Part shown: positions 3,040 through 33,716 of the stretch, in pieces | How positions within the stretch are numbered: the stretch's first letter is position 1 | How the letters are laid out: every line of letters starts with the position of its first letter | DNA from: Pseudomonadota bacterium | GTDB taxonomy: Bacteria; Pseudomonadota; Alphaproteobacteria; Rickettsiales; UBA3002 | Assembly (NCBI GenBank): GCA_963205305.1 | Contig: CAUJIC010000071.1 | Coordinates: 1 to 56,094, forward strand | Direction of reading: 5' to 3' | Length of the DNA stretch: 56,094 nt | The notes under the pieces: generated by a model | Told to the model about the DNA's origin: nothing | What the model saw: the letters and a program-made list of their open reading frames with translations, nothing else | The model's database searches: none | Made by a program: the position numbers and the translations under genes

Positions 3040-6000
3040 GTGGCTTCGTTCATTTGCGTAGCCACAGCGCCTATTCGCTGCTGAAGGGCGCAATAAAAAT
3101 TCCGAAACTCATTGGTCTCGCTAAAGCGGAGATGATGCCTGCGCTGGGCTTGGTCGATCATGATAATTTGTTCGGCTCGTTGGAGTTTAGCGAATACGCG
3201 GTGAAGGAAGGCGTGCAGCCCATTTTGGGCATTACGCTGTCGGTAGTTCCCTTCGGGCAGGATAATCACGGCGCGGCGAACCAACGTGCAGTGGCAGACC
3301 AATTGCTGGTCTACGCGAAGGATGAAGCGGGCTATGCCAACTTGCTGCAATTGGCGAGCAAGGCCTACACCGCGCCCGCCCTTGGCCAAGCGCCACTGGT
3401 GGATTATGCGATGGTGGCTGAGCACAGCGCGGGGCTGATTGCGCTCACCGGTGGTATCTATGGGGGTGTGGGTAAAATGCTGCTGGCCAACCGTGCGGGC
3501 GAGGCGGCACGGCTGCTCAATCAGCTTCACGAAATGTTCGGCGATCGGCTTTACATCGAGCTGATGCGCCATAATCTGGCGGATGAAAAACAAATCGAGC
3601 GCGCGCAGATTGATTTGGCGATTGAGAAAAATATTCCGCTCGTCGCGACGAATAATATTTACTTCGACAAAGCGAATATGAACGAGGCGCATGATGCGCT
3701 GATATGCATTGCCGATGGGCGATATGTGACGGAGACCAACCGCCCGCGCATGAATAAGGAGCACCGTTTCAAATCTGCTGAGGAAATGAAACTGCTGTTT
3801 CGCGATATACCCGAGGCGATTGAAAACACCGTAAACATTGCCCAGCGCTGTCATGTGTGGGCGCCGAGCAGAAGCCCCATTCTGCCTGGCTTTGCGATGA
3901 CGGATGACGCGGGCAATGTGCTGAGTGAATCCGACGCGCTGGCTGTGAAAGCGCGCGCGGGGCTGCAAGCGCGCCTCGAAAATTTGGTGTTCACGGAAGG
4001 CATGAGCGAAGCCGAAAAAGAGGCCATCGCCAAGCCTTACCGAGAGCGGCTCGAGTTCGAGCTTGATGTCATCATCACCATGAAATTTCCAGGCTACTTC
4101 CTCATCGTTTCGGACTTTATTTCATGGGCGAAAGCGCAAGGCATTCCCGTGGGTCCAGGGCGCGGTTCGGGCGCGGGTTCCATCGTGGCGTGGGTACTGC
4201 TGATTACCGACCTTGATCCCTTGCGCTATGGCTTGCTGTTCGAGCGTTTCTTGAACCCTGAGCGCGTGTCGATGCCCGATTTCGATATCGATTTCTGCCA
4301 AGATGGCCGCGAGCGGGTGATTGATTACGTGCGCCAAAAATATGGCGAGGCGCAGGTCGCACAAATTATCACCTTCGGGAAATTACAGGCGCGCGCGGTG
4401 CTGCGTGATGTGGGGCGCGTATTGCAAATGCCCTACAGCCAAGTCGATAGAATTTGTAAATTGGTGCCCAACAACCCAGCAGCACCTGTAACGCTGAAGG
4501 AAGCGATCGACCAAGAACCGCTGCTGAAACAAGCACTGGATGAGGACGAAAACGCAGCGCATTTGGCGGAGTTATCGATTAAGCTCGAGGGGCTTTATCG
4601 CCATGCCTCTACCCACGCGGCGGGGCTGGTGATTGGCGATAGGCCGCTGGTCGATTTAGTGCCCATGTATCGCGACCTGAAATCCGATATGCTGGTGGTG
4701 CAATATTCCATGAAATGGGCGGAGGCGGCGGGTTTGGTGAAGTTCGACTTCCTTGGCCTGCGTACGCTTTCGATCCTGCGTCAGGCGGTGGAATTTATCG
4801 AGGCGACAGGTATTTCTATCGACCTGTTGAAACTGCCCGAGGGCGACAAAAAAACCTATGCAATGCTCAGTCGTGGCGACACGCTTGGCGTGTTCCAGTT
4901 TGAATCCGCAGGCATGCGCGAGGCGCTGAAGAACCTGAAGCCCGATAGCATCGAAGACCTCATCGCGCTGGGTGCGCTCTATCGCCCTGGTCCAATGGAT
5001 AACATCCCGACCTATATCGATGTGAAGCATGGCCGTTCGCAGCCCGACTATTTGCACCCGCTGCTGGAGCCCGTGCTGAAGGAAACCTACGGCGTGATTA
5101 TTTACCAAGAGCAGGTGCAGAAAATTGCACAGGTGCTTTCGGGCTACACGCTGGGAGGTGCGGATTTGCTGCGCCGCGCGATGGGTAAGAAAATCAAGGC
5201 CGAGATGGACGCGCAACGCGCGCTGTTCGTGGATGGGGCAACCAAAAACAATGTCAACAAAACGCAGGCGAGCAATATCTTCGACCTTGTGGCGAAGTTC
5301 GCGGGCTACGGTTTCAACAAGTCGCACGCGGCGGCTTATGCCGTCATTGCCTACCAAACGGCCTACCTGAAAGCGAACTACCCTGTCGAATTTTTAGCGG
5401 CGTCGATGACGTACGAAGCAGGCAGCACTGATAAACTAGCGCAGTTTGTGGGCGAGGCGAAGAAGTTCGGCTTCGAGGTGTTGCCGCCCGATATCAATAC
5501 ATCGGAAGTGATGTTCTCGGTCGAAAACCGTGCCGATAAAAAACCTGCGATTCGCTACGCACTCGCGGCCATCAAAAACGTAGGCGCGGGCGCCATGGCG
5601 GGCATAGTGGCCGAGCGTAAGGCGAACGGGAAGTTCAAGGACATCCATGATTTCGCGAACCGCGTGGATGCAAGCGTGATGAACCGCCGCCAGTTGGAAT
5701 TCCTGACGATGGCAGGGGTGTTCGATTCGCTGGAGCCAAACCGCAGGCAAGTGCTCGAATCGCTCGATATGCTGATTGCAAGCGCGCAAAATGCAACGGA
5801 GGAACGCACCAGCAGCCAAGTGAGCCTGTTTGGTGGCGAGGCGACCCAAGCCATGAACCGCCGCGCGCTGAAGCCCGTGGAGGAATGGCCGCTACTCGAA
5901 AAGTTGAATCATGAATGTAGCGCGGTGGGGTTCTATCTTTCCACGCACCCGCTGGAGCCCTATGCGCCCGTGTTTAAAAAACTCGGTATCTCATCATCCA

Positions 6001-6545: not shown

Positions 6546-6563
6546 CTGTCACAAAAAATTCAT
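6546..6563 (+). promoter_or_regulatory. Pho-box-like direct repeat CTGTCAC-AAAA-AATTCAT
   Basis: 11/14 heptamer positions match CTGTCAT-N4-CTGTCAY, with an A-only spacer. Lies 96 nt upstream of ATG 6660. See findings. Confidence 0.45.
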
Positions 6564-8135: not shown

Positions 8136-8153
8136 CTGTCACAAAAGCTTCAC
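8136..8153 (+). promoter_or_regulatory. Pho-box-like direct repeat CTGTCAC-AAAA-GCTTCAC
   Basis: 11/14 heptamer positions match, with an A-only spacer. Lies 55 nt upstream of TTG 8209. The flanking ~45 nt resemble 6546-6590. Confidence 0.45.
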
Positions 8154-8208: not shown

Positions 8209-10158
8209 TTGACGGACAAACTTCTAGAGTCAGAGCCCACCCAATTCGCGCCCGACAGTGCGGAGCAAAGCGCGTCTGTACCACAGGCAGCAAAAGGCCA
8301 GCACACGCCCGATAGTTCCTACCAAAGCTACTTGTTTGGTGGCGCCGGTTCGGACGAACACCCTGCATGGAGCGATAGCGCCAAAGGTCGTGCGGCAATT
8401 CGCCTGATTTCACGTGGGATTGTGGGTGCGGCGTTCTTCACCATCGGTGGGCGGATGGCTACGCAACACCTGAAGGGGTATAATCAGAATGCGCATTGGG
8501 GCGAGACTGGTAACGATGGCAAATGGCTGCAATACATCGCGAAGGGGATTGATTCGACACTTGGTCGCGGCATCCAAAAAACGGTTACCAAGTTTGCGGA
8601 AATTAAATATGGCGCAGGTGAGGTAGCTGATAACATTGGCCGCAATGCGGTGACGTTCCGCGATACGCACCACTATGCGGGTTCTGGGTTCGATAAGGGC
8701 CGTTCCTATGGCGCGGATATTGTGGGGTTCACTTTCGACTTTGCGGCGGCATCGGTGGGTGATGCGCTGACGCGGAACGTGATTCAGGCCCTCGACCCTA
8801 ATGTGAAGAAAAGCTGGAGGGTGAATGATGAGGGCAAGCCAGCCGTGCAGGGTGAGAAGTGGCATTTCCTACCCGGTGAATTCCTGAAATGGAGCGGCAA
8901 TACCGTAGCCCGTATTTTTACGAAGAACCAAGGGGAAGACTGGGCTGCGGCAATTCCTTATGCCTTCCAGATGAAGTTCCAACGCCAAGCGTTGAACAAA
9001 GCATTTGGCGGGCGCTGGAAAGGCCACGAAGTGCAATTCGATGAAGGTTGGAATGGTGGAGCTTTTAGAGTAGAAACAAGCAAAATTTCGCCTCAAAGTC
9101 CGCCTCGTGTTATCAGCGATATGCAGCTTGTCGGCGCGATTGACCTACATTTGCGCTTTACGGGCTATAACTGGTACACGCTGATGTATCGCGAAGGCCA
9201 TGATGCGATTGGCAATGCGTGGAACCAGTGGAAGGATAATGGCTTCAAAGTCGATTTGAAGCTACCAGAGCATTTCAACCCCATCACTGCTACGGTTGAT
9301 GGAGTTGGTCACACGGCGCGCTATGTGACGAAGAGCTTTATTAAGGCCAATATGTTCATGAACCCCGCGGTGATTCCCTTCTGGATGATGCGCGTGCCAC
9401 AGAGCAAACGGCGTGATCGGTTTATTGCGGATGGTGCGCATGTGCCTACCCCCGCCAATTTACAAGATAATTTCCAGCCATTCCATGATGCGACCTATGA
9501 TAATTGGAAACCTAATACGCGCTTTGATCGGTTCGAGAGGGGCTTCAGCCAAACGCTTAATCCGCTTGGTAAATTCTCGAATTGGTTAGGTGGCAAAGCA
9601 GCCAATGCTAGCGATAAGCTTGTTGGTAAAGGCATGTGGCCAAAGAATGAGTGGCTGAACAAAATAGTTGAGCAAGGCGATAGACGCCGCAGCTTTATGC
9701 ATAATTATGTTGATGCGTCGCTTTCCTACACGCCGTACATGTGGGCGAAAGCGGAAACCACGTTGCGAGTGGATGATCGTAAAGCCGATGGTTCGCCTGG
9801 GCAGATGGATCTGGCGATTTATAAATTCATGGATGATGTGGCACGCTTTAAGTTCCATCAGGTTTCAGGTGATCTCAAAAAAATGTGGAAGCTGGGCACC
9901 AACTTCGAGCGTACGGTGAAGGCGCGCGAAGGAGCCGAGCCCGACGCACAAGAGATTGTACAGGCACCCATCACCCCAGCGCGCCCAACAACGCTGGTGC
10001 AAGCAAGCAGCATCGAGCAGACGCAGGGGCAGCAGTTGCGTTCCGCGCCAAGCGCCAATGACAGCGATTATCATGAAGATAAGAAGTGGGCGCAAATGGT
10101 ATCGGGCAGTGACATCAATGCCGCGCGTTTCCACTCCGCGAGCCCTACACGGCATTAG
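8209..10158 (+). CDS. Hypothetical protein, Trp/aromatic-rich (orphan)
   Basis: 649-aa ORF with a TTG start preceded by GAGG at 8200-8203. One N-terminal hydrophobic segment (RGIVGAAFFTIGG) and a low-complexity C-terminal tail. No recognisable family. Confidence 0.6.
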   Translation: MTDKLLESEPTQFAPDSAEQSASVPQAAKGQHTPDSSYQSYLFGGAGSDEHPAWSDSAKGRAAIRLISRGIVGAAFFTIGGRMATQHLKGYNQNAHWGETGNDGKWLQYIAKGIDSTLGRGIQKTVTKFAEIKYGAGEVADNIGRNAVTFRDTHHYAGSGFDKGRSYGADIVGFTFDFAAASVGDALTRNVIQALDPNVKKSWRVNDEGKPAVQGEKWHFLPGEFLKWSGNTVARIFTKNQGEDWAAAIPYAFQMKFQRQALNKAFGGRWKGHEVQFDEGWNGGAFRVETSKISPQSPPRVISDMQLVGAIDLHLRFTGYNWYTLMYREGHDAIGNAWNQWKDNGFKVDLKLPEHFNPITATVDGVGHTARYVTKSFIKANMFMNPAVIPFWMMRVPQSKRRDRFIADGAHVPTPANLQDNFQPFHDATYDNWKPNTRFDRFERGFSQTLNPLGKFSNWLGGKAANASDKLVGKGMWPKNEWLNKIVEQGDRRRSFMHNYVDASLSYTPYMWAKAETTLRVDDRKADGSPGQMDLAIYKFMDDVARFKFHQVSGDLKKMWKLGTNFERTVKAREGAEPDAQEIVQAPITPARPTTLVQASSIEQTQGQQLRSAPSANDSDYHEDKKWAQMVSGSDINAARFHSASPTRH

Positions 10159-17439: not shown

Positions 17440-17457
17440 ATGTCATGAAACTGTCAC
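17440..17457 (+). promoter_or_regulatory. Pho-box-like direct repeat ATGTCAT-GAAA-CTGTCAC (best match in window)
   Basis: 13/14 heptamer positions match CTGTCAT-N4-CTGTCAY. Lies 59 nt upstream of ATG 17517, same orientation. Confidence 0.55.
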
Positions 17458-17516: not shown

Positions 17517-17948
17517 ATGACGCAACAGTACAGATCACACGCAGATAGATTTCAATCGGCAGCCGCAACGCTTCCTGCAAGCGGTACAAAGGATCAAGCC
17601 TTCATCGATGTAACCAAATCTGAAAATTTGGAAAGAGCGCTGGGGCAGTTGTTTCAAGCATGGAAGGGTGCGCCAGAGGAGCAATCTGCTGTGCGATTTA
17701 GCCTAGTGGTTGGTAGCGACAGTAGGCAAGCGATTGCTATTTCGCCAACCAATGAGCATGCCATTGTCTCTGCTACGCAGGCGCAGCAGTTTTTATCGGT
17801 TGTTGCTGGTGCGGTGGGTGATTTTAGGGCCAAGTTTGATGATAGCGGTAGCTTGAAAATCACGGAACCGCTGCAAAAATGGGCGCTTGGAATCCAAAAA
17901 ATGCGCAGTGGGTTGGCTCAGGATAACGACATCGCGGCAGCGCGCTAG
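17517..17948 (+). CDS. Hypothetical protein (orphan, 143 aa)
   Basis: ATG preceded by AAAGGAG at 17506-17512. No recognisable motif. Lies in an AT-richer insertion between pyrH and tsf. Confidence 0.5.
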   Translation: MTQQYRSHADRFQSAAATLPASGTKDQAFIDVTKSENLERALGQLFQAWKGAPEEQSAVRFSLVVGSDSRQAIAISPTNEHAIVSATQAQQFLSVVAGAVGDFRAKFDDSGSLKITEPLQKWALGIQKMRSGLAQDNDIAAAR

Positions 17949-22345: not shown

Positions 22346-23410
22346 ATGGTGGCCATCCGCAAGCCTAAAGCCAAAAAACTTCAGCTCGACCTTGCCTTGC
22401 AAGGCGGTGGGGCGCACGGGGCGTTTACGTGGGGCGTACTCGATAGGCTGCTCGAGGAAGAAGATATCGAGATTACAGGCATCAGCGGCACCAGCGCAGG
22501 GGCGATGAATGCGGCGGTGCTGATTGATGGCTATAACGAAGGCGGCCGCAAACGCGCTAAGCAACAGCTGCACGATTTTTGGAGGGAGATAAGCGAGGCT
22601 GCGGCGACCTTCGCGCCGTTTGGCCAAGTGCCGCACACAGGAATTATGCCCGGAATGGAGTGGATGAACGCGTTTAACCCGATGGACATGATGTCGCGGA
22701 TGTTCTCGCCCTATGAATGTAATCCGCTGAATATTAACCCTATGCGTGGGGTGCTAGAGCGCATTCTAGAGCCTAAGCACCTGCAAAACGGTATTAAGCT
22801 GTATGTGACCGCCACCAATGTGGAAACGGGTGAGGCGCGGGTCTTTCAGGGCAACGAAATTACGATCGATGTGCTGCTTGCCTCGGCCTGTTTGCCGTTT
22901 GTTTATCAGGCGGTGGAAATTGACGGCGTGCCCTATTGGGATGGCGGCTATATGGGCAACCCTGCCATTTGGCCGCTGATTTATGGTACAAAATGCCACG
23001 ATGTTTTGCTGGTGCAAATCAACCCGCTCACCCGAAGCGGCACCCCCAAAACCGCGATGGATATTATCAATCGTGTCAACGAAATTAGCTTTAACTCGAG
23101 CCTGATTGCCGAAATGCGCGCGATTAACTTTGTGCGCAAACTGATTAAGAAGGGTAGGCTGAAGAACACGGAATATGCCGATATGCGCATGCACAGGGTG
23201 TTGCCTCCTGCCGATTTGCAGGAAATGAATGCCAGCAGCAAAATGAATGCTAGCTGGGATTTCTTTTTGTTGCTACATGGCATCGGGCGCACGCAAATGG
23301 ATGCGTGGCTTACGAAGAATAAGAAGTATCTTGGCAAGGAAAGCTCGATTGATATTCAAGAACAGTTCCTTGCTAAATCGCACATACGAAAAACGAAACA
23401 GGTGACCTAA
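22346..23410 (+). CDS. Patatin-like phospholipase/esterase family protein
   Basis: Oxyanion GGGAHGAF and nucleophile elbow GTSAGA (GxSxG). The DGG motif of the catalytic Asp is in ...PYWDGGYMGNPA. Confidence 0.85.
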   Translation: MVAIRKPKAKKLQLDLALQGGGAHGAFTWGVLDRLLEEEDIEITGISGTSAGAMNAAVLIDGYNEGGRKRAKQQLHDFWREISEAAATFAPFGQVPHTGIMPGMEWMNAFNPMDMMSRMFSPYECNPLNINPMRGVLERILEPKHLQNGIKLYVTATNVETGEARVFQGNEITIDVLLASACLPFVYQAVEIDGVPYWDGGYMGNPAIWPLIYGTKCHDVLLVQINPLTRSGTPKTAMDIINRVNEISFNSSLIAEMRAINFVRKLIKKGRLKNTEYADMRMHRVLPPADLQEMNASSKMNASWDFFLLLHGIGRTQMDAWLTKNKKYLGKESSIDIQEQFLAKSHIRKTKQVT

Positions 23411-26235: not shown

Positions 26236-27716
<1,481 letters not shown>

Positions 27717-27824: not shown

Positions 27825-27933
27825 CGTCAAAACTGATGTGATACGTTAATTGATGTGTTACTTTAAGATTTCAAAGCAACCATCTGACATAAAAGTAAAA
27901 AGAATAACCTAAAAAGGGTTAGCAACCGAAAAA

Positions 27934-27962
27934 GCCCCGTCAGTAATGACGGGGCTTTTTTG
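27934..27962 (+). terminator. Intrinsic terminator ending the 16S transcription unit
   Basis: GCCCCGTCA-GTAA-TGACGGGGC perfect 9-bp stem followed by TTTTTTGTT. Confidence 0.85.
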
Positions 27963-27977
27963 TTGGTTTGATAGCAA

Positions 27978-27995
27978 TCTTCACACGAATGTCAC
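27978..27995 (+). promoter_or_regulatory. Pho-box-like direct repeat TCTTCAC-ACGA-ATGTCAC
   Basis: 10/14 heptamer positions match, the weakest of the five. Lies 52 nt upstream of ATG 28048. Confidence 0.35.
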
Positions 27996-28047
27996 ACAGC
28001 CATTTTTCTTAATCTGCTACCCTTTACTCATTCTAGGAAAGGGATTT

Positions 28048-28521
28048 ATGGCGCAGTTGTTCAGTGTGGATTCGGAAGATTTCTCGAAGGAGAGGCGCAC
28101 CTTTTCCATCGGATTAGAGAATGACGCATTGGTGGTAAGCCATGATCTGGTTATGCCAGCGGATACTTCGACACCCGCAACGACAATGTTGGTTGCGGTG
28201 AAATTCACAAAGGGGCGCATTGAGGTGAATTGCCAAGCGCATGATTCTAATGAAAAATTTGGTGCTGTTTATACGCAATCGCGCAATGGCAGGTATACGT
28301 GCGAAGAAACTGGAAATTCTGACTATCATGATGGAATGAAATCTATGGGCGAAGCCCTTTTTATGGGTGCAATTTACCCTGATATGATTCGCGCCGCACT
28401 CGGGGCTGTAAAAAAATTGAATCCAGAGCAAGCTCAGCAGCTAACGACATCACAACGACAGTTGGCCCGAGAGCCTGACCGTCTATTGCGCCATTTAAAG
28501 CCTTCAATAAATGAAATATAA
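28048..28521 (+). CDS. Hypothetical protein (orphan, 157 aa)
   Basis: ATG 28048 preceded by AGGAAAGGGA. The longer ORF from 27946 would start inside the 16S terminator and was rejected. Shares a motif pattern with the next ORF. Confidence 0.55.
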   Translation: MAQLFSVDSEDFSKERRTFSIGLENDALVVSHDLVMPADTSTPATTMLVAVKFTKGRIEVNCQAHDSNEKFGAVYTQSRNGRYTCEETGNSDYHDGMKSMGEALFMGAIYPDMIRAALGAVKKLNPEQAQQLTTSQRQLAREPDRLLRHLKPSINEI

Positions 28522-28575
28522 ATCAACGACGACTTGCTGAGTTAGGCTATTATTTTGAAACCAAAGGAGCGGCGC

Positions 28576-29040
28576 GTGCCAACGGAAAAAGTGAGAATCG
28601 GCAGGACGGATTATCTTGTGAAACCTGAGGAGGGTTCCCTCACCGTTCAGTCCGAGCACCCCATGTATGCAGTCCATAGTACTGTGATTGTGCACTTCAC
28701 CGCCACGGGTATTGAGGTGATTGAGGATCGCACCAATGCGCCAGAGCCATGGAAAACCATCGTCACCCCGCTGCGCACGGGCGGGTTTAAAGTCGATACC
28801 ACGGGTGCTGTCGAGGAGCTTGGCATGGTTACGGCGGAGTTTCATTCCATGGATAGTGTGGTCGAATATGCCGATGCGGCGGAGCTAAAGAAGGGCGATG
28901 CGCGCGTGTTCAGCGCAATTCGCAATGCCGTGCAAGCCGCCGCGCAGTTGGAGGGAACCAACACACTCTCCATGGCACAGCGCAAAATGATCGAAGCCTA
29001 CAAAACCCACTTCGAAGAGACGAACTTGCGGATTGGTTAG
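28576..29040 (+). CDS. Hypothetical protein (orphan, ~154 aa), possible distant paralogue of 28048-28521
   Basis: GTG 28576 is preceded by AAGGAG at 28565-28570. The ORF track start TTG 28555 is an alternative. Confidence 0.5.
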   Translation: MPTEKVRIGRTDYLVKPEEGSLTVQSEHPMYAVHSTVIVHFTATGIEVIEDRTNAPEPWKTIVTPLRTGGFKVDTTGAVEELGMVTAEFHSMDSVVEYADAAELKKGDARVFSAIRNAVQAAAQLEGTNTLSMAQRKMIEAYKTHFEETNLRIG

Positions 29041-29085
29041 GGCTGAGGCTTAGACCGCGGATGAGTCGAGGGGCTTTTTTGTTGG

Positions 29086-29103
29086 CTGTCATTAAACCGT
29101 AAC
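29086..29103 (+). promoter_or_regulatory. Pho-box-like direct repeat CTGTCAT-TAAA-CCGTAAC
   Basis: 12/14 heptamer positions match, with an A/T-only spacer. Lies 48 nt upstream of ATG 29152. Confidence 0.5.
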
Positions 29104-29151
29104 AATCCTGTGCTATTCTGACCCTGTAAAAGTAAAAAATAACAGGGCAGA

Positions 29152-30402
29152 ATGATGAGTTTCAGCACCACAATGCAGCCTAAAAGACAGCCTAAAGGTT
29201 CGGGGCAGGGAGTGACGCCTAAGGTGGGCGATGAAAACGTCTATGCAGGCGTGGAAGCAGCCGACCAGGGCCAAGTTCAGGCAATCGAGGAACAACTGAA
29301 GGCCATGAATGATCTGGCGGCGCTGATCGAGGAATCGGCGCGTAAACTGGCCGCTGAATCGCACGGGCAAGCCTATCAGGAAGTGTCGCACGCGCGCCAG
29401 CAGGCGGATGTCACCCGCGCCAGCGCCGAGAGCGCCAAAAGCCAAATTCAATCCGCCCGCGCCCACTCGCGCGATGGCAAATGCCACCTTTCCACCCGCG
29501 CCTTGGCCGCGATCACCACGCATATGAGCGTGGCCATACGCATTGCCAACCAAGAGAAAGCCGCGCTTGAGAAAGCGGCCGCTGAGTACCGCTCGACCGA
29601 GTCTGCGGCCGCCCGCAGTGCCGCGGCAGCCGCTCAGGCGGCGCCAAGCATCACCCAATCCATTACCCGCGCCATCAAAGAAGTGACGCATGTGTCGGTG
29701 GCCGCGGTGGTTGGCCCGCCCGTGTTCGGTGCGGCAACGCCCAAATTCAGCATGGATGGCCTGTTGCACGAGGCATCGGAAGCGGCGAGCCATGCCGCGA
29801 GCACGCTTGAGAAAATGGCCGATGCGGTGCTGGAATCATCGCCCGTTGCGCGCGTGCGTGCGCTTGGCCGCGCCACATGGCAAGGCGCCAAGGAAGTGGG
29901 AGCCAGCGTCGCCAGTGGTGTAAGCCAGTTTGTGGCGGCACCCGTGGAAACGACCAAAAAAGTGGCCAAAATAGTGGCGCACAAAGCCGTGGAATTGAAG
30001 GATGGCGCCGTGCGTGTAGCGAATGAATATATCGCCCAACCTGCGATGAAGGCGGCGGATGCAGTGGCAACGGGCGCGAAGCGTGCCTACAGCGCCGCGG
30101 GACAGATGACACAGAAAGCAATGGGCGCCGCCCAAGCGACCTGGCTGGATGCCAAGAAGATGGCCAGCAATTTGTGGCCATTTAGCCAAGAGACACCCGT
30201 CAAAGCGCCGGTGGTGGTGGCAACGAAACAGAAAACATCGCCCGAGGCGATGGCGTGGGCGCTGCACTTAAGCGGTTGGCGCGATGAGCGCTTTGGCTTT
30301 AGCGTACACAATGCAAGCGCTGCGCTGCTGGTTAGCCCTATGGCTAGCATGAAAATGAGGGATTTACCCAGTGTTTTTACGATAATGGGGATGCATAATT
30401 AA
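29152..30402 (+). CDS. Hypothetical Ala-rich, predicted helical protein (orphan, 416 aa)
   Basis: Longest ORF in a very G+C-rich stretch. Several shorter antisense ORFs there look like GC-driven shadows. No TM segment, signal peptide or known motif. Confidence 0.55.
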   Translation: MMSFSTTMQPKRQPKGSGQGVTPKVGDENVYAGVEAADQGQVQAIEEQLKAMNDLAALIEESARKLAAESHGQAYQEVSHARQQADVTRASAESAKSQIQSARAHSRDGKCHLSTRALAAITTHMSVAIRIANQEKAALEKAAAEYRSTESAAARSAAAAAQAAPSITQSITRAIKEVTHVSVAAVVGPPVFGAATPKFSMDGLLHEASEAASHAASTLEKMADAVLESSPVARVRALGRATWQGAKEVGASVASGVSQFVAAPVETTKKVAKIVAHKAVELKDGAVRVANEYIAQPAMKAADAVATGAKRAYSAAGQMTQKAMGAAQATWLDAKKMASNLWPFSQETPVKAPVVVATKQKTSPEAMAWALHLSGWRDERFGFSVHNASAALLVSPMASMKMRDLPSVFTIMGMHN

Positions 30403-30515
30403 TGAAATATTAATGAATTTGTGCCATATTGGATAAAAGTTGAGCTAATTTTGAACATCCCGCCAAGTGGATGAATGCAGAAAAAATGAAATGAGACCAC
30501 CAAAGGATAGATTGA

Positions 30516-32351
30516 ATGGCGAATGAGGCGACAGTATTTAGCGTGTTCGATGGCCAGACGAAACGTCGGGAGCATGAGACGTTTGCTGCGCGCAGCCCCG
30601 AGGAATCCGCCAAGCGCACCGAGCAAGAACAGATCGTTGAGTTGCAACGCTTGCTGGAAGGGCGCATCGCCGAGTTAACGCAGCGCGCCGGCGCGAATAT
30701 GACCCCCGCGATTGCAGCGCAAATCCAGAGTATGCGCTCAGCCGTGGTTGGCGGTAACCTTGCTGCGCTGATGCTCGTATATAACGAAACTGCGAATGCA
30801 AGCAGCGCAATCGCGGCCGAAGCTGCGGCGGAGAATTCGGCATGGCTGAATTTCAACTATGAAAATGCTTATAACGCGCCGCTGAGCAGAGAAGCGCTTG
30901 AGCGGATTGCGGCGGTTGGAAGAGATTATAACATAGATAATGTTAGAGAGCGCGAAGATTTAGCGCGGTTGTTTGTTAATCCTAATGCGCCAGATGCAGC
31001 GCAGGCAGTGCAGGGTGCCGCCAGAGATCCAGAGACTATCGCGTTGCAAAGAGAGTATGTAAGCCACCCCGCAGAAACAAGGCGAAACGCGGAGGAGCAC
31101 ACTCAGCGTTCTGGAAACGGTCTTAGAGCAGCTATAAATGCTGCCCCAGAAGGTTCGGAAGAGCGCGCTATCTTGGAAAGAGCACTTAAAGAGGATCACT
31201 TTAGAAGCCCTGAAGTCCGTACAAAATTGAAAGAGTACATTCGCAACAAGGATGAAAAAGCCTTGAATGAAGCAAAAGAGATGATGGATGCTCGTGACAA
31301 GCATGTGCAGGCCAAGGCGCAAGAAAAAGGTACGAGTGTAACTCAGGAGAAAATAGGGCTTTCGATTCAGGATTCGTTGAGAACGATTGAAGAGCTGGGG
31401 AAAAGTAAGAATCTGGAGCAGCTGCAAACGTATAACCAGATTATTTCAGGAAAGAGTGAAGTTTTTGGCAAATCTGAAAATCTGAGCGAGCAAGAACAGC
31501 TGAACGAAGTTGCTAAGCTTGTAAAACGTCAGGGCATGACTGATGCTCAGGCACAGGAACTTGCAAAAGCAGTGCTATCGAGCTCTGAAATTAAAAAAAT
31601 GCAAGCAGTTGATTTGAAGCAAAACATAGATGATGCCATGATGGCGGGATTTAAAGCGATGCAGAAGGGCGATTCAGGCTTGTCTTTCAAACTTGCTAAA
31701 GACGTTGAGGAATTAATGAAAGAAAGCGGCCTCAGTGACAAAGATGCTGCGAATTGGGGTGCATTTTTAACAGAAGGTGCGAAGCTGGGGGTGGCGAATC
31801 AGTCGGTTATAAGTACATTCTCTGAAGAAACAGCAAAGCTTTCGATAAAACTTACTCTTAAGGAAATGGAGGATGCAGCTTCGCAGAATCGTGCGCCAAG
31901 CATGGCTAATGTCACACTCGCTTTTTCTAAAGAGATGGCAAATGATGCTCTATCCTCGGCAACATCCGCAGTGGGTAATGCCGTTACGGGTGGCGTGAAG
32001 TCTGTGGCTAATTTTTTGGGTTTTGGCGGCGTGGAAATTGATGTTGTGCAGGTACGGGCTGTGGAACGTACAGGTGGTTGGGATAATGTGGTCACCAAGG
32101 ATGGTAAAAAGCTGTTCGATTTGAGTGGCGACAGCAAACAGGATGTGGAAGCGATTAAAGCCGCGTTGGCAAAAGCTGGCGTTGACCTGTCCAATTACGA
32201 TAAAGATGGAAACAAAAATCTGGATGCCAAAGAGCTTAATGCGGCGATGGAAGAGGCAACTGTAAAAACGGGCTCACATCGTGAGCCTGCCCCATCTTCG
32301 ACACCCAATCAGAGCGTTGCTGCAGAGCGTGGTGCCCCCATTCGGCGTTAA
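30516..32351 (+). CDS. Hypothetical coiled-coil-like protein with a C-terminal EF-hand-like loop (orphan, 611 aa)
   Basis: ATG preceded by AAAGGATAG. Long K/E/Q/A-rich helical sequence. DKDGNKNLDAKE lies at residues 562-573. Confidence 0.6.
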   Translation: MANEATVFSVFDGQTKRREHETFAARSPEESAKRTEQEQIVELQRLLEGRIAELTQRAGANMTPAIAAQIQSMRSAVVGGNLAALMLVYNETANASSAIAAEAAAENSAWLNFNYENAYNAPLSREALERIAAVGRDYNIDNVREREDLARLFVNPNAPDAAQAVQGAARDPETIALQREYVSHPAETRRNAEEHTQRSGNGLRAAINAAPEGSEERAILERALKEDHFRSPEVRTKLKEYIRNKDEKALNEAKEMMDARDKHVQAKAQEKGTSVTQEKIGLSIQDSLRTIEELGKSKNLEQLQTYNQIISGKSEVFGKSENLSEQEQLNEVAKLVKRQGMTDAQAQELAKAVLSSSEIKKMQAVDLKQNIDDAMMAGFKAMQKGDSGLSFKLAKDVEELMKESGLSDKDAANWGAFLTEGAKLGVANQSVISTFSEETAKLSIKLTLKEMEDAASQNRAPSMANVTLAFSKEMANDALSSATSAVGNAVTGGVKSVANFLGFGGVEIDVVQVRAVERTGGWDNVVTKDGKKLFDLSGDSKQDVEAIKAALAKAGVDLSNYDKDGNKNLDAKELNAAMEEATVKTGSHREPAPSSTPNQSVAAERGAPIRR

Positions 32352-32386: not shown

Positions 32387-33073
32387 TTGCCGCCTATGAA
32401 TCAAGCTGAACACGCATCCGATGTTATCAAGCATGTGGATTTAACCTTGCCCGCGAATGGCGGCAAAGTGTTGATGCATAGCTGTTGCGCGCCGTGCGCG
32501 GGCGAGCTGATGGAGCAAATGGTGGCCAACGGAATTGACCTGACCATCTTTTTCTACAACCCGAATATTCACCCGCTGCGGGAATACGAGATTCGCAAGA
32601 ACGAGAATATCCGCTTCGCCGAGAAGATGGGGATTCCGTTTGTGGATGCGGATTACGATGTGCAGGATTGGTTCGCTCGCGCGAAGGGCATGGAGCGCGA
32701 CCCCGAGCGCGGCCGCCGCTGCACCATGTGCTTCGATATGCGCTTCGCCCGCACCGCGCTTTATGCGCATGAGCATGGCTTTCCCATCATCACCAGCAGC
32801 CTTGGCATCAGCCGTTGGAAAAACCTCGACCAGATCAATGATTGCGGCGTGCGCATGGCCGAGCCGTATGATGGCATGACCTATTGGGAATATAACTGGC
32901 GGGTGAAGGGCGGCGGCGCGCGCATGTATGAGATTGCTAAGCGCGAGGAATTCTACGCCCAGCAATATTGTGGCTGCATCTATAGCTTACGCGATAGCAA
33001 CGAATGGCGCGAAAAAAACGGCCGCGAAAAAATCGCGATTGGCGAGACGTGGTATGAAGAAAAACTAGCGTAA
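32387..33073 (+). CDS. queH: Epoxyqueuosine reductase QueH (DUF208)
   Basis: ...[13 protein letters not shown]..., ...[11 protein letters not shown]..., ...[14 protein letters not shown] are the conserved Cys clusters of QueH. The start may be ATG 32396. Confidence 0.85.
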
Positions 33074-33143: not shown

Positions 33144-33716
33144 ATGATGGCCGATAATCAAGCATACGAAAGATTGCCCGCCGAAGATAAGGTGCGCGTG
33201 AACTCGGTTATTTTGAAGGCGCTGGAAACAGCGGAACCCAAAGGCATTGTGGGGGCGTTTCAAGCTGGCCTCGATGCCGCATCGACTGAATCTCAGACTC
33301 GCAATGCGTCGCGGGTTCTAACCAAAGATGCTATTGAGTCGCGTCGGAGTAAATTCCAAACTATGCTGGATGGTGCGCGCGATGATCTCTCCACGCCGCC
33401 TGTTTTAGCTACATTGAAATCAGCGCCTAGCAGTGGCCTCAGCAAGCAGCTTAATGCCTTCCGAGCCTTGCAAGACAGTATGGGTGAGTCATCAGCGAAC
33501 GCGACGGATGCTCAGTTCACTGCGACGGTTAAACGAGCGATCGCCACCGATGAAGCTCCAGTTTTTGGTGGCAGTATCAATAATACGCCGGCGATTAAAG
33601 GAGCTTTGGTTAACTTTATCGCGCGGGAACAGGTGGCTGCAACTCAGGAAAGTGCTAAAAATGCACCTGAAGTACGCGAGGCACCCAAAGCACCTGCAGT
33701 AGGCAAGGGGCGCTAA
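33144..33716 (+). CDS. Hypothetical protein (orphan, 190 aa)
   Basis: ATG preceded by GGGAGAA. Hydrophilic and Ala/Ser-rich. No recognisable motif. Confidence 0.5.
   Translation: MMADNQAYERLPAEDKVRVNSVILKALETAEPKGIVGAFQAGLDAASTESQTRNASRVLTKDAIESRRSKFQTMLDGARDDLSTPPVLATLKSAPSSGLSKQLNAFRALQDSMGESSANATDAQFTATVKRAIATDEAPVFGGSINNTPAIKGALVNFIAREQVAATQESAKNAPEVREAPKAPAVGKGR

Follow-up and report, generated by a model that had tools for sequence, protein, structure and literature searches.

What lies downstream of a bacterial 16S rRNA gene when the internal transcribed spacer (ITS) and the 23S rRNA gene that would normally follow it are not there? The question is raised by a contig of 56,094 nucleotides (CAUJIC010000071.1 of GenBank assembly GCA_963205305.1; this whole stretch is called the window here) from an alphaproteobacterium of the Rickettsiales (UBA3002). 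On its forward strand, a complete 16S rRNA gene (26236-27714; Rfam SSU_rRNA_bacteria, 1556 bits) has its own terminator and is then followed by protein-coding genes in place of ITS and 23S; no 23S, 5S or spacer tRNA gene was found after it within the window. The first four genes, all on the same strand, are open reading frames (ORFs) that we call ORF1 (28048-28521, 157 aa), ORF2 (28576-29040, 154 aa, with a GTG start and the Shine-Dalgarno sequence AAAGGAG), ORF3 (29155-30402, 415 aa) and ORF4 (30516-32351, 611 aa). A preliminary description, made from the sequence letters, had reported this arrangement, which holds, and had proposed that the four ORFs are orphans forming a lineage-specific, environmentally regulated module.

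We found that the block is almost certainly a real, conserved coding cassette. The cassette is restricted to one clade, is built of modules and has a fixed genomic address, with the unlinked 16S gene as its conserved left flank and queH (32396-33073, +; Pfam QueH, 9e-63), which lies outside the cassette, as its conserved right flank. Its products are three new protein families: the small proteins (ORF1 and ORF2), the ORF3 family and the large helical proteins (ORF4). The block in the window would be the local copy of a cassette carried between a stand-alone 16S gene and queH by a small group of uncultured alphaproteobacteria of wastewater and biofilms. Our favoured reading as a whole, a clade-specific regulon cassette headed by Pho boxes and encoding fast-evolving, exported interaction proteins, has in our judgment about an even chance of being right; its parts differ in strength and are graded separately below.

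The four ORFs are not orphans, as all have homologues in related genomes. We searched 5.8 billion proteins with a word-indexed method, and 1.84 billion representative proteins with a profile made from four ORF3 homologues. The word-indexed search gave one homologue of ORF4 (P0006, 66% identity), one of ORF2 (P0007, 77%) and none of ORF1. The ORF3 profile found 26 representatives with E < 1e-3, 13 of them with E < 1e-10; all were 370-440 aa long and aligned from end to end. With 26 ORF3-family clusters among 1.84 billion, the homologues are confined to a narrow clade, and the module is lineage-specific as proposed. In addition, the exact window proteins were found on independent Logan contigs, and window DNA is present in biofilm, wastewater and activated-sludge metagenomes. 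In the GTDB species genomes, the ORF3 alignment matched a single metagenome-assembled genome (MAG), one already known to us, and peptides of ORF4 had no match. The one named relative is "MAG: Alphaproteobacteria bacterium UR_AS_maxbin.022".

The contigs of the homologues led to eight further loci, all on metagenomic contigs. Partial 16S sequences of these relatives are 94-99.8% identical to that of the window (the comparisons are limited to the 3' 470-1400 nt), and queH is 86-96% identical. Synteny had been suggested as a check, and we found one common order in six loci besides the window (seven with it): the 3' end of 16S and its trailer, a terminator, zero to two small genes, a gene of the ORF3 family, a gene for a large helical protein, and queH. 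In L007, L011, L012, L013, L014 and L015 the cassette immediately follows the 3' end of 16S, and queH is downstream in six loci. Homologues of the ORFs occur in matching order in L004, L007, L010, L011, L013, L014 and L015. The exception is L008, in which a glutathione S-transferase (GST) gene is upstream.

Divergence between the loci speaks for real coding genes. We calculated the ratio of nonsynonymous to synonymous divergence (dN/dS) by the method of Nei and Gojobori. The ratio was 0.36 for ORF2 (window and L007; dS 0.36), 0.23 for ORF4 (window and L004; dS 1.09) and 0.19-0.38 for ORF3 (six pairs; dS 1.4-2.7, which is saturated, so the values are rough). Flanking genes gave 0.07-0.09 (queH), 0.07 (map) and 0.10 (cinA). 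No homologue had a disrupted frame. The test of coding and conservation set out in the preliminary description, with frames intact in all relatives and ratios of 0.19-0.38, thus leaves the ORFs standing. In two wastewater metatranscriptomes dominated by rRNA we found one RNA fragment each on ORF1, ORF3, the 3' end of ORF4 and queH; the ORF1 fragment, in X22, was exact.

Within the conserved order, the genes of the cassette differ greatly in how fast they diverge. Between the window and L007, QueH is 96%, MAP 93% and CinA 84% identical. ORF2 is 76-77% identical in the same pair, and ORF3 is 45% identical with a dN of 0.50, which is 4-14 times that of the flanking genes; measured against queH, dN in the cassette is 4-15 times as large. 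In the ORF4 slot, only the N-terminal ~65 residues can be aligned. The large proteins fall into at least three very divergent allele classes: the window and L004 carry class A, L010 and L015 carry class C, and class B is found in L007, L013 and L011. They are 490-710 aa long or more and share an N-terminal module of ~95 residues across classes; comparison of profiles suggests that the classes are one very diverged family (hhalign probability 94% for B with C and 73% for A with B).

Class membership does not follow the relatedness of the flanks. L007 is near the window, yet its large protein is of class B, as in the more distant L013. ORF4 is also a mosaic within class A: codons 121-480 have a dS of 0.4-1.1 and a dN/dS of 0.06-0.29, and in the first ~120 and last ~130 codons dS exceeds 2. 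From these patterns we infer that diverged lineages have exchanged gene segments by recombination, with the conserved flanks as anchors of the locus.

The small genes form a separate module. We found that the small-gene slot holds zero, one or two members of the family, or unrelated genes. There are two in L007 (154 and 157 aa) and one each in L013 and L014; in L010 the slot holds an unrelated protein of 146 aa. In L004 (positions 109-669; MAG GCA_035911175.1) it encodes a 186-aa DUF6680 membrane protein with an N-terminal hydrophobic helix, and the G+C content at third codon positions (GC3) of this gene is 0.34. This looks like replacement of the module. X5, a wastewater metagenome from a different study, contained ORF3, ORF4, queH and a 190-aa ORF downstream of queH at ~99% identity to the window. 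At a depth of ~3x, X5 had zero coverage of ORF1-ORF2, and one contig left the window match at ~29078, within a repeat at the junction. At such low depth, the pattern is no more than suggestive of gain or loss of the ORF1-ORF2 module. The block is not the four-gene unit first described. It has a conserved two-gene core, the ORF3-family gene and the gene for the large protein, preceded by a swappable small-gene module.

The junction repeat, GGGGCTTTTTTGTTGG, is an exact 16-nt direct repeat that flanks ORF1-ORF2 (left copy 27951-27966, right copy 29070-29085, both +; 100% identity, spacing 1119 nt). It consists of the 3' half of the 16S terminator together with its T-tract. The intact terminator (27927-27962, +) has a 16-bp stem and a T-tract, with a minimum free energy of -29.2 kcal/mol (z -7.7); in L007 the arms of the terminator differ from those in the window and the surrounding sequence is kept. 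The right copy had been taken for a second terminator after ORF2. Only the 3' half and the T-tract of a terminator are there; most of the hairpin is lost, and the remnant folds weakly (z 0.2). The same repeat is also found before promoters in L004 and L007.

The 190-aa ORF is Ala-rich, has low GC3 and lies downstream of queH (33144-33716). L007 encodes a weak homologue (E 1e-4, or 3e-4 when groups were compared) in inverted orientation (5178-5735, -), and a strong copy of the promoter motif described below precedes it at L007 5787 (TCTTCAT-AAAA-CTGTAAC, N10, TATGGT). L013 and L015 have unrelated small ORFs in its position. Because this position varies, the variable zone reaches past queH.

How might such a cassette be expressed? 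In E. coli pho promoters, the Pho box stands in for the -35 hexamer, ~10 nt before the -10 hexamer. The box itself, two CTGTCAT repeats with a 4-nt A/T-rich spacer, is the binding site of phosphorylated PhoB in E. coli and likewise in rhizobia (PMC3131613; on the general role, PMC11208175). We found such an arrangement before ORF3 (29086-29119, +), where CTGTCAT-TAAA-CCGTAAC matches the consensus at 12 of 14 positions and is followed, after 10 nt, by the -10 hexamer TATTCT. The repeat that heads the ORF1-ORF2 unit, TCTTCAC-ACGA-ATGTCAC (27978-27995, +), is 53 nt before the ATG of ORF1 and agrees with CTGTCAT-N4-CTGTCAY at 9 of 14 positions. Pho-box-like repeats had been noted at both places; they are present, they are conserved cis-elements in the related loci, and they proved more telling than anything else in the block.

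Conservation of the ORF3 promoter is high. A block of ~45 nt upstream of ORF3 is ~85% conserved in four loci whose proteins are ~40% identical. It reads (C/T)TGTCAT-(T/A/C)AAA-C(C/T)GTAAC, then 10 nt, then TAnnnT, and it is also found in L010, L011, L013, L014 and L015. Orthologous ORF3 sites match the Pho-box consensus at 11-14 of 14 positions. The sites of the small genes are weaker, with an 11-bp period and a -10 hexamer ~9-12 nt away (TTGTCAT-CAAA-TATTCAC and TCTTCAT-GAAA-TTGTCAC in L007; TTGTCAC-CAAA-GCTTCAC in L013; ATTTCAT-AAAA-CCGTCAC in L014). The derived consensus is CTGTCAT-NAAA-YYGTMAY, that is, two 7-nt repeats 11 bp apart. Hexamers downstream of the box are TATTCT, TATAGT, TACACT, TATGCT, TAAGCT, TACTAT and TATGAT, at a distance of 10 nt in the ORF3-family promoters. 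In every related locus the repeats stand in the right place relative to the -10 hexamer, which makes regulation of the module, as had been supposed, very probable.

The alignment of four orthologous upstream regions also bears on the start of ORF3. The gene had been given 416 aa, from the ATG at 29152; the gene is real, but its start is most likely the second ATG, at 29155, which gives 415 aa.

None of the four genes had a promoter in a scan with the sigma-70 -35/-10 consensus, as would be expected if their promoters depend on an activator and lack a -35 hexamer. Promoters for an extracytoplasmic function (ECF) sigma factor, CtrA or sigma-54 were considered and rejected: GGAAC-N16-CGTT, TTAA-N7-TTAA and TGGCAC-N5-TTGC were absent, and the downstream hexamer, judged by eye, is TAnnnT. 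The ORF1-ORF2 unit and ORF3, like each unit in the relatives, start after the terminator-like GGGGCTTTTTTGTTGG, with the box and then a sigma-70 -10 hexamer, as in promoters that depend on activation of the PhoB/OmpR type. ORF4 is a separate case. A Pho-box-like site precedes the large gene in classes B and C and is absent in class A. In the ORF3-ORF4 spacer (30403-30515, +), which has columns that are invariant in seven loci, the conserved element (30403-30452) starts with ATTAA... and continues with GATAAAAGTTGAG..AAT; it matches neither the direct repeats nor a sigma-70 promoter. Judging from this arrangement, ORF4 may be co-transcribed with ORF3 in the window.

The motif is not restricted to the cassette. 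Allowing up to two mismatches, the strict pattern has two matches in the window, at 17440 and 29086 (0.77 expected), both intergenic and pointing at the next gene. A position weight matrix (PWM) built from nine ORF3 promoters found 11 further matches in 124 kb, compared with 1.3 in shuffled sequence; nine of the 11 are upstream of lineage-specific genes and in the same orientation. The pattern TGTCAYNAAANNKTMAY, chosen post hoc, has four exact matches in the window (6547, 8137, 17441 and 29087; 0.21 expected), all on the + strand and 52-97 nt before genes without a Pfam match, which encode proteins of 484, 649 and 143 aa and ORF3. Because further lineage-specific genes of the window share this promoter element, the block appears to be part of a wider regulon of clade-specific genes.

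Two of these genes lie near the start of the window. TGTCACAAAAAATTCAT (6547-6563, +) precedes the 484-aa gene (6657/6660-8111), whose product has several hydrophobic segments, and TGTCACAAAAGCTTCAC (8137-8153, +) precedes the 649-aa gene (8209-10158). In both, a CTGTCACAAAA... motif is found 56-97 nt before the start; the two genes probably belong to the same regulon. The third site, TGTCATGAAACTGTCAC (17441-17457, +), is upstream of the 143-aa gene (17517-17948) and contains the best Pho-box match of the window, ATGTCAT-GAAA-CTGTCAC (13/14). The 143-aa gene is inside an insertion between tsf and pyrH, and the bases after its site (ACCCATTTT) resemble those after the ORF1 site (ACAGCCATTTT).

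Taken together, the promoter sequences make it likely that these genes form a direct-repeat regulon under a response regulator of the OmpR/PhoB family. That the regulator is PhoB itself, and the signal phosphate limitation, is a narrower proposal, which we regard as evenly balanced. The first half-site equals or nearly equals that of PhoB (CTGTCAY), the 4-nt spacer is A-rich as in Pho boxes, and the -10 hexamer lies at the distance established for PhoB-dependent promoters in E. coli. Two loci have a full Pho box: CTGTCAT-CAAA-CTGTCAT in L014 (14/14; N10, TATGAT) and CCGTCAT-CAAA-CTGTCAT in L011 (13/14; N10, TACTAT). These features count against the alternative that a different OmpR-family regulator controls a clade-specific accessory regulon in response to a signal other than phosphate. 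We consider that alternative a possible one, though the lesser prospect. In its favor, the second half-site at ORF3 promoters is consistently GTAAC and not GTCAT. All eight motif-bearing genes encode lineage-specific proteins, and no recognisable phosphate-acquisition gene is among them; no pst or pho gene was found in the window or the related loci, although only ~180 kb of sequence was in view. Also, effectors of Legionella are marked by the combination of response-regulator elements, restricted distribution, atypical G+C content and hypervariable regions (PMC2701608).

If the regulator is PhoB, the cassette would belong to a starvation regulon made up mainly of fast-evolving proteins of unknown function, pointing to an ecological response (predation, attachment or host contact) rather than phosphate scavenging. 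The promoters resemble Pho promoters of E. coli, Sinorhizobium and Rhizobium in having CTGTCAT repeats with an 11-bp period, an A-rich spacer, a box ~10 nt from the -10 hexamer and several genes so equipped. They differ in the GTAAC half-site at ORF3 and in that no target here is a phosphate-scavenging gene.

What do the genes encode? Searches of Pfam, NCBIfam, PHROG and PADLOC gave nothing at threshold for any of the four ORFs, domain and family searches that took in relatives and 17 members of the ORF3 family were equally empty, and no paralogue of the four proteins was found elsewhere in the window. None has a predicted signal peptide or transmembrane (TM) segment: the N-termini are polar, and no 19-residue window exceeds a Kyte-Doolittle value of 1.57. 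The preliminary description had likewise seen no TM segment, signal peptide or motif; it was right on the first two and wrong on the third, as ORF4 has an exact EF-hand loop (PROSITE PS00018).

ORF3 is an Ala-rich (21%) helical protein with amphipathic Ala/Lys-rich stretches. An alignment of 17 family members shows a variable N-terminus of ~30 residues, then a conserved helical (coiled-coil) region (…Q.xxLxxQL…ARxL…GEA…MR…E(I/L)xSAPTDxxTGKK(R/K)xS…EKxAL). This is followed by a short hydrophobic stretch of Gly, Pro and Val (VAAVVGPPVF), a variable Ala-rich center and a Pro/Lys/Ala linker. The C-terminal ~45 residues are conserved (MAxALxQA…LP…S…LPx(I/L)…) and end with one hydrophobic or aromatic residue plus one polar residue. 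Searched against the PDB, the family profile met designed helical bundles only; vinculin, at E ~0.1, was judged compositional. A flagellin or other axial protein was rejected, since Flagellin_N/C and Flg_bb_rod/FlgK were absent at E up to 1 in the 17 members and in the large proteins.

ORF4 is acidic, has 15% Ala and no Cys, and had no match among PDB sequences. Its AlphaFold2 model is all-helical and poor (predicted local distance difference test, pLDDT, 48). The EF-hand loop DKDGNKNLDAKEL (residues 562-574; 32199-32237, +) has helices on either side in the model, at low confidence. The class A homologue L004_599 also has a PS00018 loop, DVNGDGKLSVEEI (residues 525-537), at the neighboring loop position. 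Pfam EF-hand_6 scored 12.2 bits in ORF4 (cut-off 25) and its matches in P0006 were faint; we did not find a paired EF-hand, the partner loop being degenerate in each protein. A class B protein, L011_708 (L011 2213-4336), contains two near-identical Pro/Ala-rich tandem repeats of ~50 residues (…PAPENVASTLRA(M/I)DNAM…VASVADLRKFENEQAAAAAVPAP…) and runs off the end of its contig.

ORF1 and ORF2 belong to one small beta-meander family, of which ORF1 is a diverged member. ORF1 aligned with a profile of five ORF2-like sequences at 95.5% probability (hhalign, E 1.4e-8), so the two are diverged tandem paralogues. The homologues of ORF2 are 76-77% (P0007 and L007) and 36% (L014_160) identical to it. Both proteins are acidic (isoelectric point 5.4-5.8), and ORF2 has no Cys. 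The AlphaFold2 model of ORF2, from a 4-sequence alignment, is confident (pLDDT 81; predicted template modeling score 0.79) and has ten antiparallel strands followed by three C-terminal helices. Foldseek found no significant match to it in the PDB (best E 0.047, template modeling score 0.28, a p32-like protein). In BFVD, the best match (E 0.017, score 0.43) covered 93 residues of an uncharacterised phage protein. The fold is thus predicted with confidence yet has no structural neighbor in either the PDB or BFVD, and the protein is a candidate for an experimental structure. The suggestion that the small proteins are chaperones or adaptors found no support, in that the predicted ORF2 fold matches no known secretion chaperone.

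We propose, tentatively, that the products are exported interaction proteins. ORF3 and ORF4 would meet a partner outside the cell (prey, host, phage or competitor) after Sec-independent export, and the small proteins would be their dedicated partners. An outside partner would be the simplest account of the divergence of ORF3 and ORF4 relative to the flanks, of the mosaic structure of ORF4 and of the incongruence between classes and flanks. Several traits are consistent with export: the proteins lack a signal peptide and a TM segment and contain little or no Cys (none in ORF2 and ORF4), ORF4 is acidic and has an EF-hand, ORF3 has a variable center between conserved termini, and L011_708 has Pro-rich repeats. 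No secretion system genes were found in the 56-kb window. A substrate of the RTX/type I kind was considered and rejected, as there was no HemolysinCabind match; the acidity, lack of Cys and EF-hand of ORF4 are only suggestive of one.

The same anatomy could instead belong to intracellular scaffold or coat proteins made during phosphate starvation, with ORF3 and ORF4 resembling phasins or apolipoproteins and ORF1 and ORF2 binding small ligands. An intracellular location agrees with the four ORFs' lack of a signal peptide or TM segment. The composition of ORF3 (21% Ala, helical, with VAAVVGPPVF and the amphipathic stretches) would suit such a coat, its profile meets only designed helical bundles in the PDB, and the source is wastewater, where storage polymers are common. 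In addition, the weak Foldseek neighbors of ORF2 in the PDB include up-and-down beta ligand binders (avidins, a lipocalin and a fatty acid-binding protein). However, the template modeling scores of these matches are all 0.3 or lower. Phasin identity was specifically rejected: neither Phasin, Phasin_2 nor any other Pfam domain matched any of the 17 ORF3-family members, for the phasins at E up to 1. Moreover, a housekeeping scaffold is unlikely to fall to 25-45% identity where partial 16S is 94-99.8% and queH 86-96% identical, or to show classes incongruent with the flanks. We therefore regard the scaffold explanation as unlikely.

A remnant of a mobile element or prophage beside the rRNA gene is very improbable, and so is a collection of ORFs that are spurious or in decay. 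In favor of these readings, GC3 is low in ORF1, most of ORF4 and the 190-aa ORF, a direct repeat flanks ORF1-ORF2, and gene content around queH is variable. Against them, there was no significant PHROG match, no PADLOC match and no plasmid or phage match (tblastn), and the block contains neither an integrase nor a transposase gene. Its position does not change within the clade, GC3 is native in ORF2 and ORF3, and the frames are intact in every relative, with dN/dS well below 1.

The base composition bears on this in detail. The G+C content of the window is ~54%, and housekeeping genes have a GC3 of 0.56-0.70. Values for ORF2 (0.65), ORF3 (0.67) and the first 300 nt of ORF4 (0.66) fall in this range. 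GC3 is 0.45 in ORF1, and in ORF4 past the first 300 nt it steps down to 0.40-0.47.

Returning to the favoured reading, a regulon cassette of exported interaction proteins, several of our results weigh against it. The 27978 site matches the Pho-box consensus at only 9 of 14 positions, and the strict E. coli-type pattern, with up to three mismatches allowed, does not exceed its chance frequency in the window. These loci themselves supplied the extended motif and the PWM, which makes the statistics partly circular, and the post hoc choice of TGTCAYNAAANNKTMAY overstates significance; its link with lineage-specific genes is striking all the same. Saturation of dS makes the dN/dS of ORF3 unreliable. 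ORF2 is not unusually fast, its dN (0.13) being close to that of cinA (0.12). The RNA evidence consists of four short fragments that may be carry-over of DNA, and the low GC3 of ORF1 and ORF4 speaks against very high expression. Finally, the ORF4 model is of poor quality, the ORF2 model is built on just four sequences, and no chaperone fold of the CesT/SycE or tetratricopeptide repeat (TPR) type was among the top 50 Foldseek matches of ORF2.

A more far-reaching version of the favoured reading is a novel arsenal. In a clade at genus level, a PhoB-type regulon would consist largely of hypervariable families of exported interaction proteins: the ORF3 family, the large helical proteins, whose conserved N-terminus would serve as a delivery or assembly module, and a small partner protein with a new fold. 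Modules, each bounded by a terminator and headed by a promoter, would be shuffled at the junction formed by GGGGCTTTTTTGTTGG and the box, with the 16S gene and queH as anchors. From the sequences, we consider this speculative and rather improbable.

Known systems offer partial parallels. The effector regulons of PmrA and CpxR in Legionella and Coxiella are similar in that their genes are lineage-restricted and domainless, in part have atypical G+C content and lie in variable regions with an element near the -10 hexamer (the criteria of PMC2701608). Unlike those regulons, the present one is accompanied by no Dot/Icm or other secretion system that we could see, host-associated life is not established, the motif is Pho-box-like and not PmrA-like, and eukaryote-like domains are absent. 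Should the proteins be exported, their shared motif could reveal further substrates genome-wide, in the way that Legionella effectors were found. Hypervariable flagellin-type and antigen loci with conserved ends or flanks are also comparable. ORF3 has conserved ends and a variable center, the large protein keeps its promoter and N-terminus and changes its body, and conserved flanks could drive exchange. Unlike such loci, no member has a Flagellin, FlgK or pilin domain.

Unlinked 16S genes, as in Rickettsiales and slow-growing bacteria, likewise have their own terminator and are followed by protein genes. In contrast to those cases, the genome here is not AT-rich (G+C 54%) or visibly reduced. 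To our knowledge, a conserved hypervariable cassette has not been described immediately after an unlinked 16S gene before. What is new is the three protein families in such a cassette. Regulons of lineage-specific genes under a response regulator are a known theme, as are hypervariable loci with conserved sequence on either side, and the mechanism is not demonstrably new. Four unexplained ORFs have thus become three families with a fixed address, a shared cis-element and rapid mosaic divergence between conserved flanks. The position of the cassette beside an unlinked 16S gene also makes it a handy marker for strain-resolved metagenomics of this group.

Two minor observations concern the block and its surroundings. 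A 21-nt repeat with 86% identity (AATAAATGAAATATAAATCAA at 28506-28526 and AATTAATGAAATATTAATGAA at 30397-30417) spans the stop codons of ORF1 and ORF3, and in other loci a similar AT-rich ATTAA string follows the stop codon of the ORF3 homologue. Approximately 3 kb upstream of the 16S gene, the window contains a gene for a patatin-like phospholipase (22346-23410; Pfam 2.9e-24). Patatin-like phospholipases are common among effectors of host-associated bacteria.

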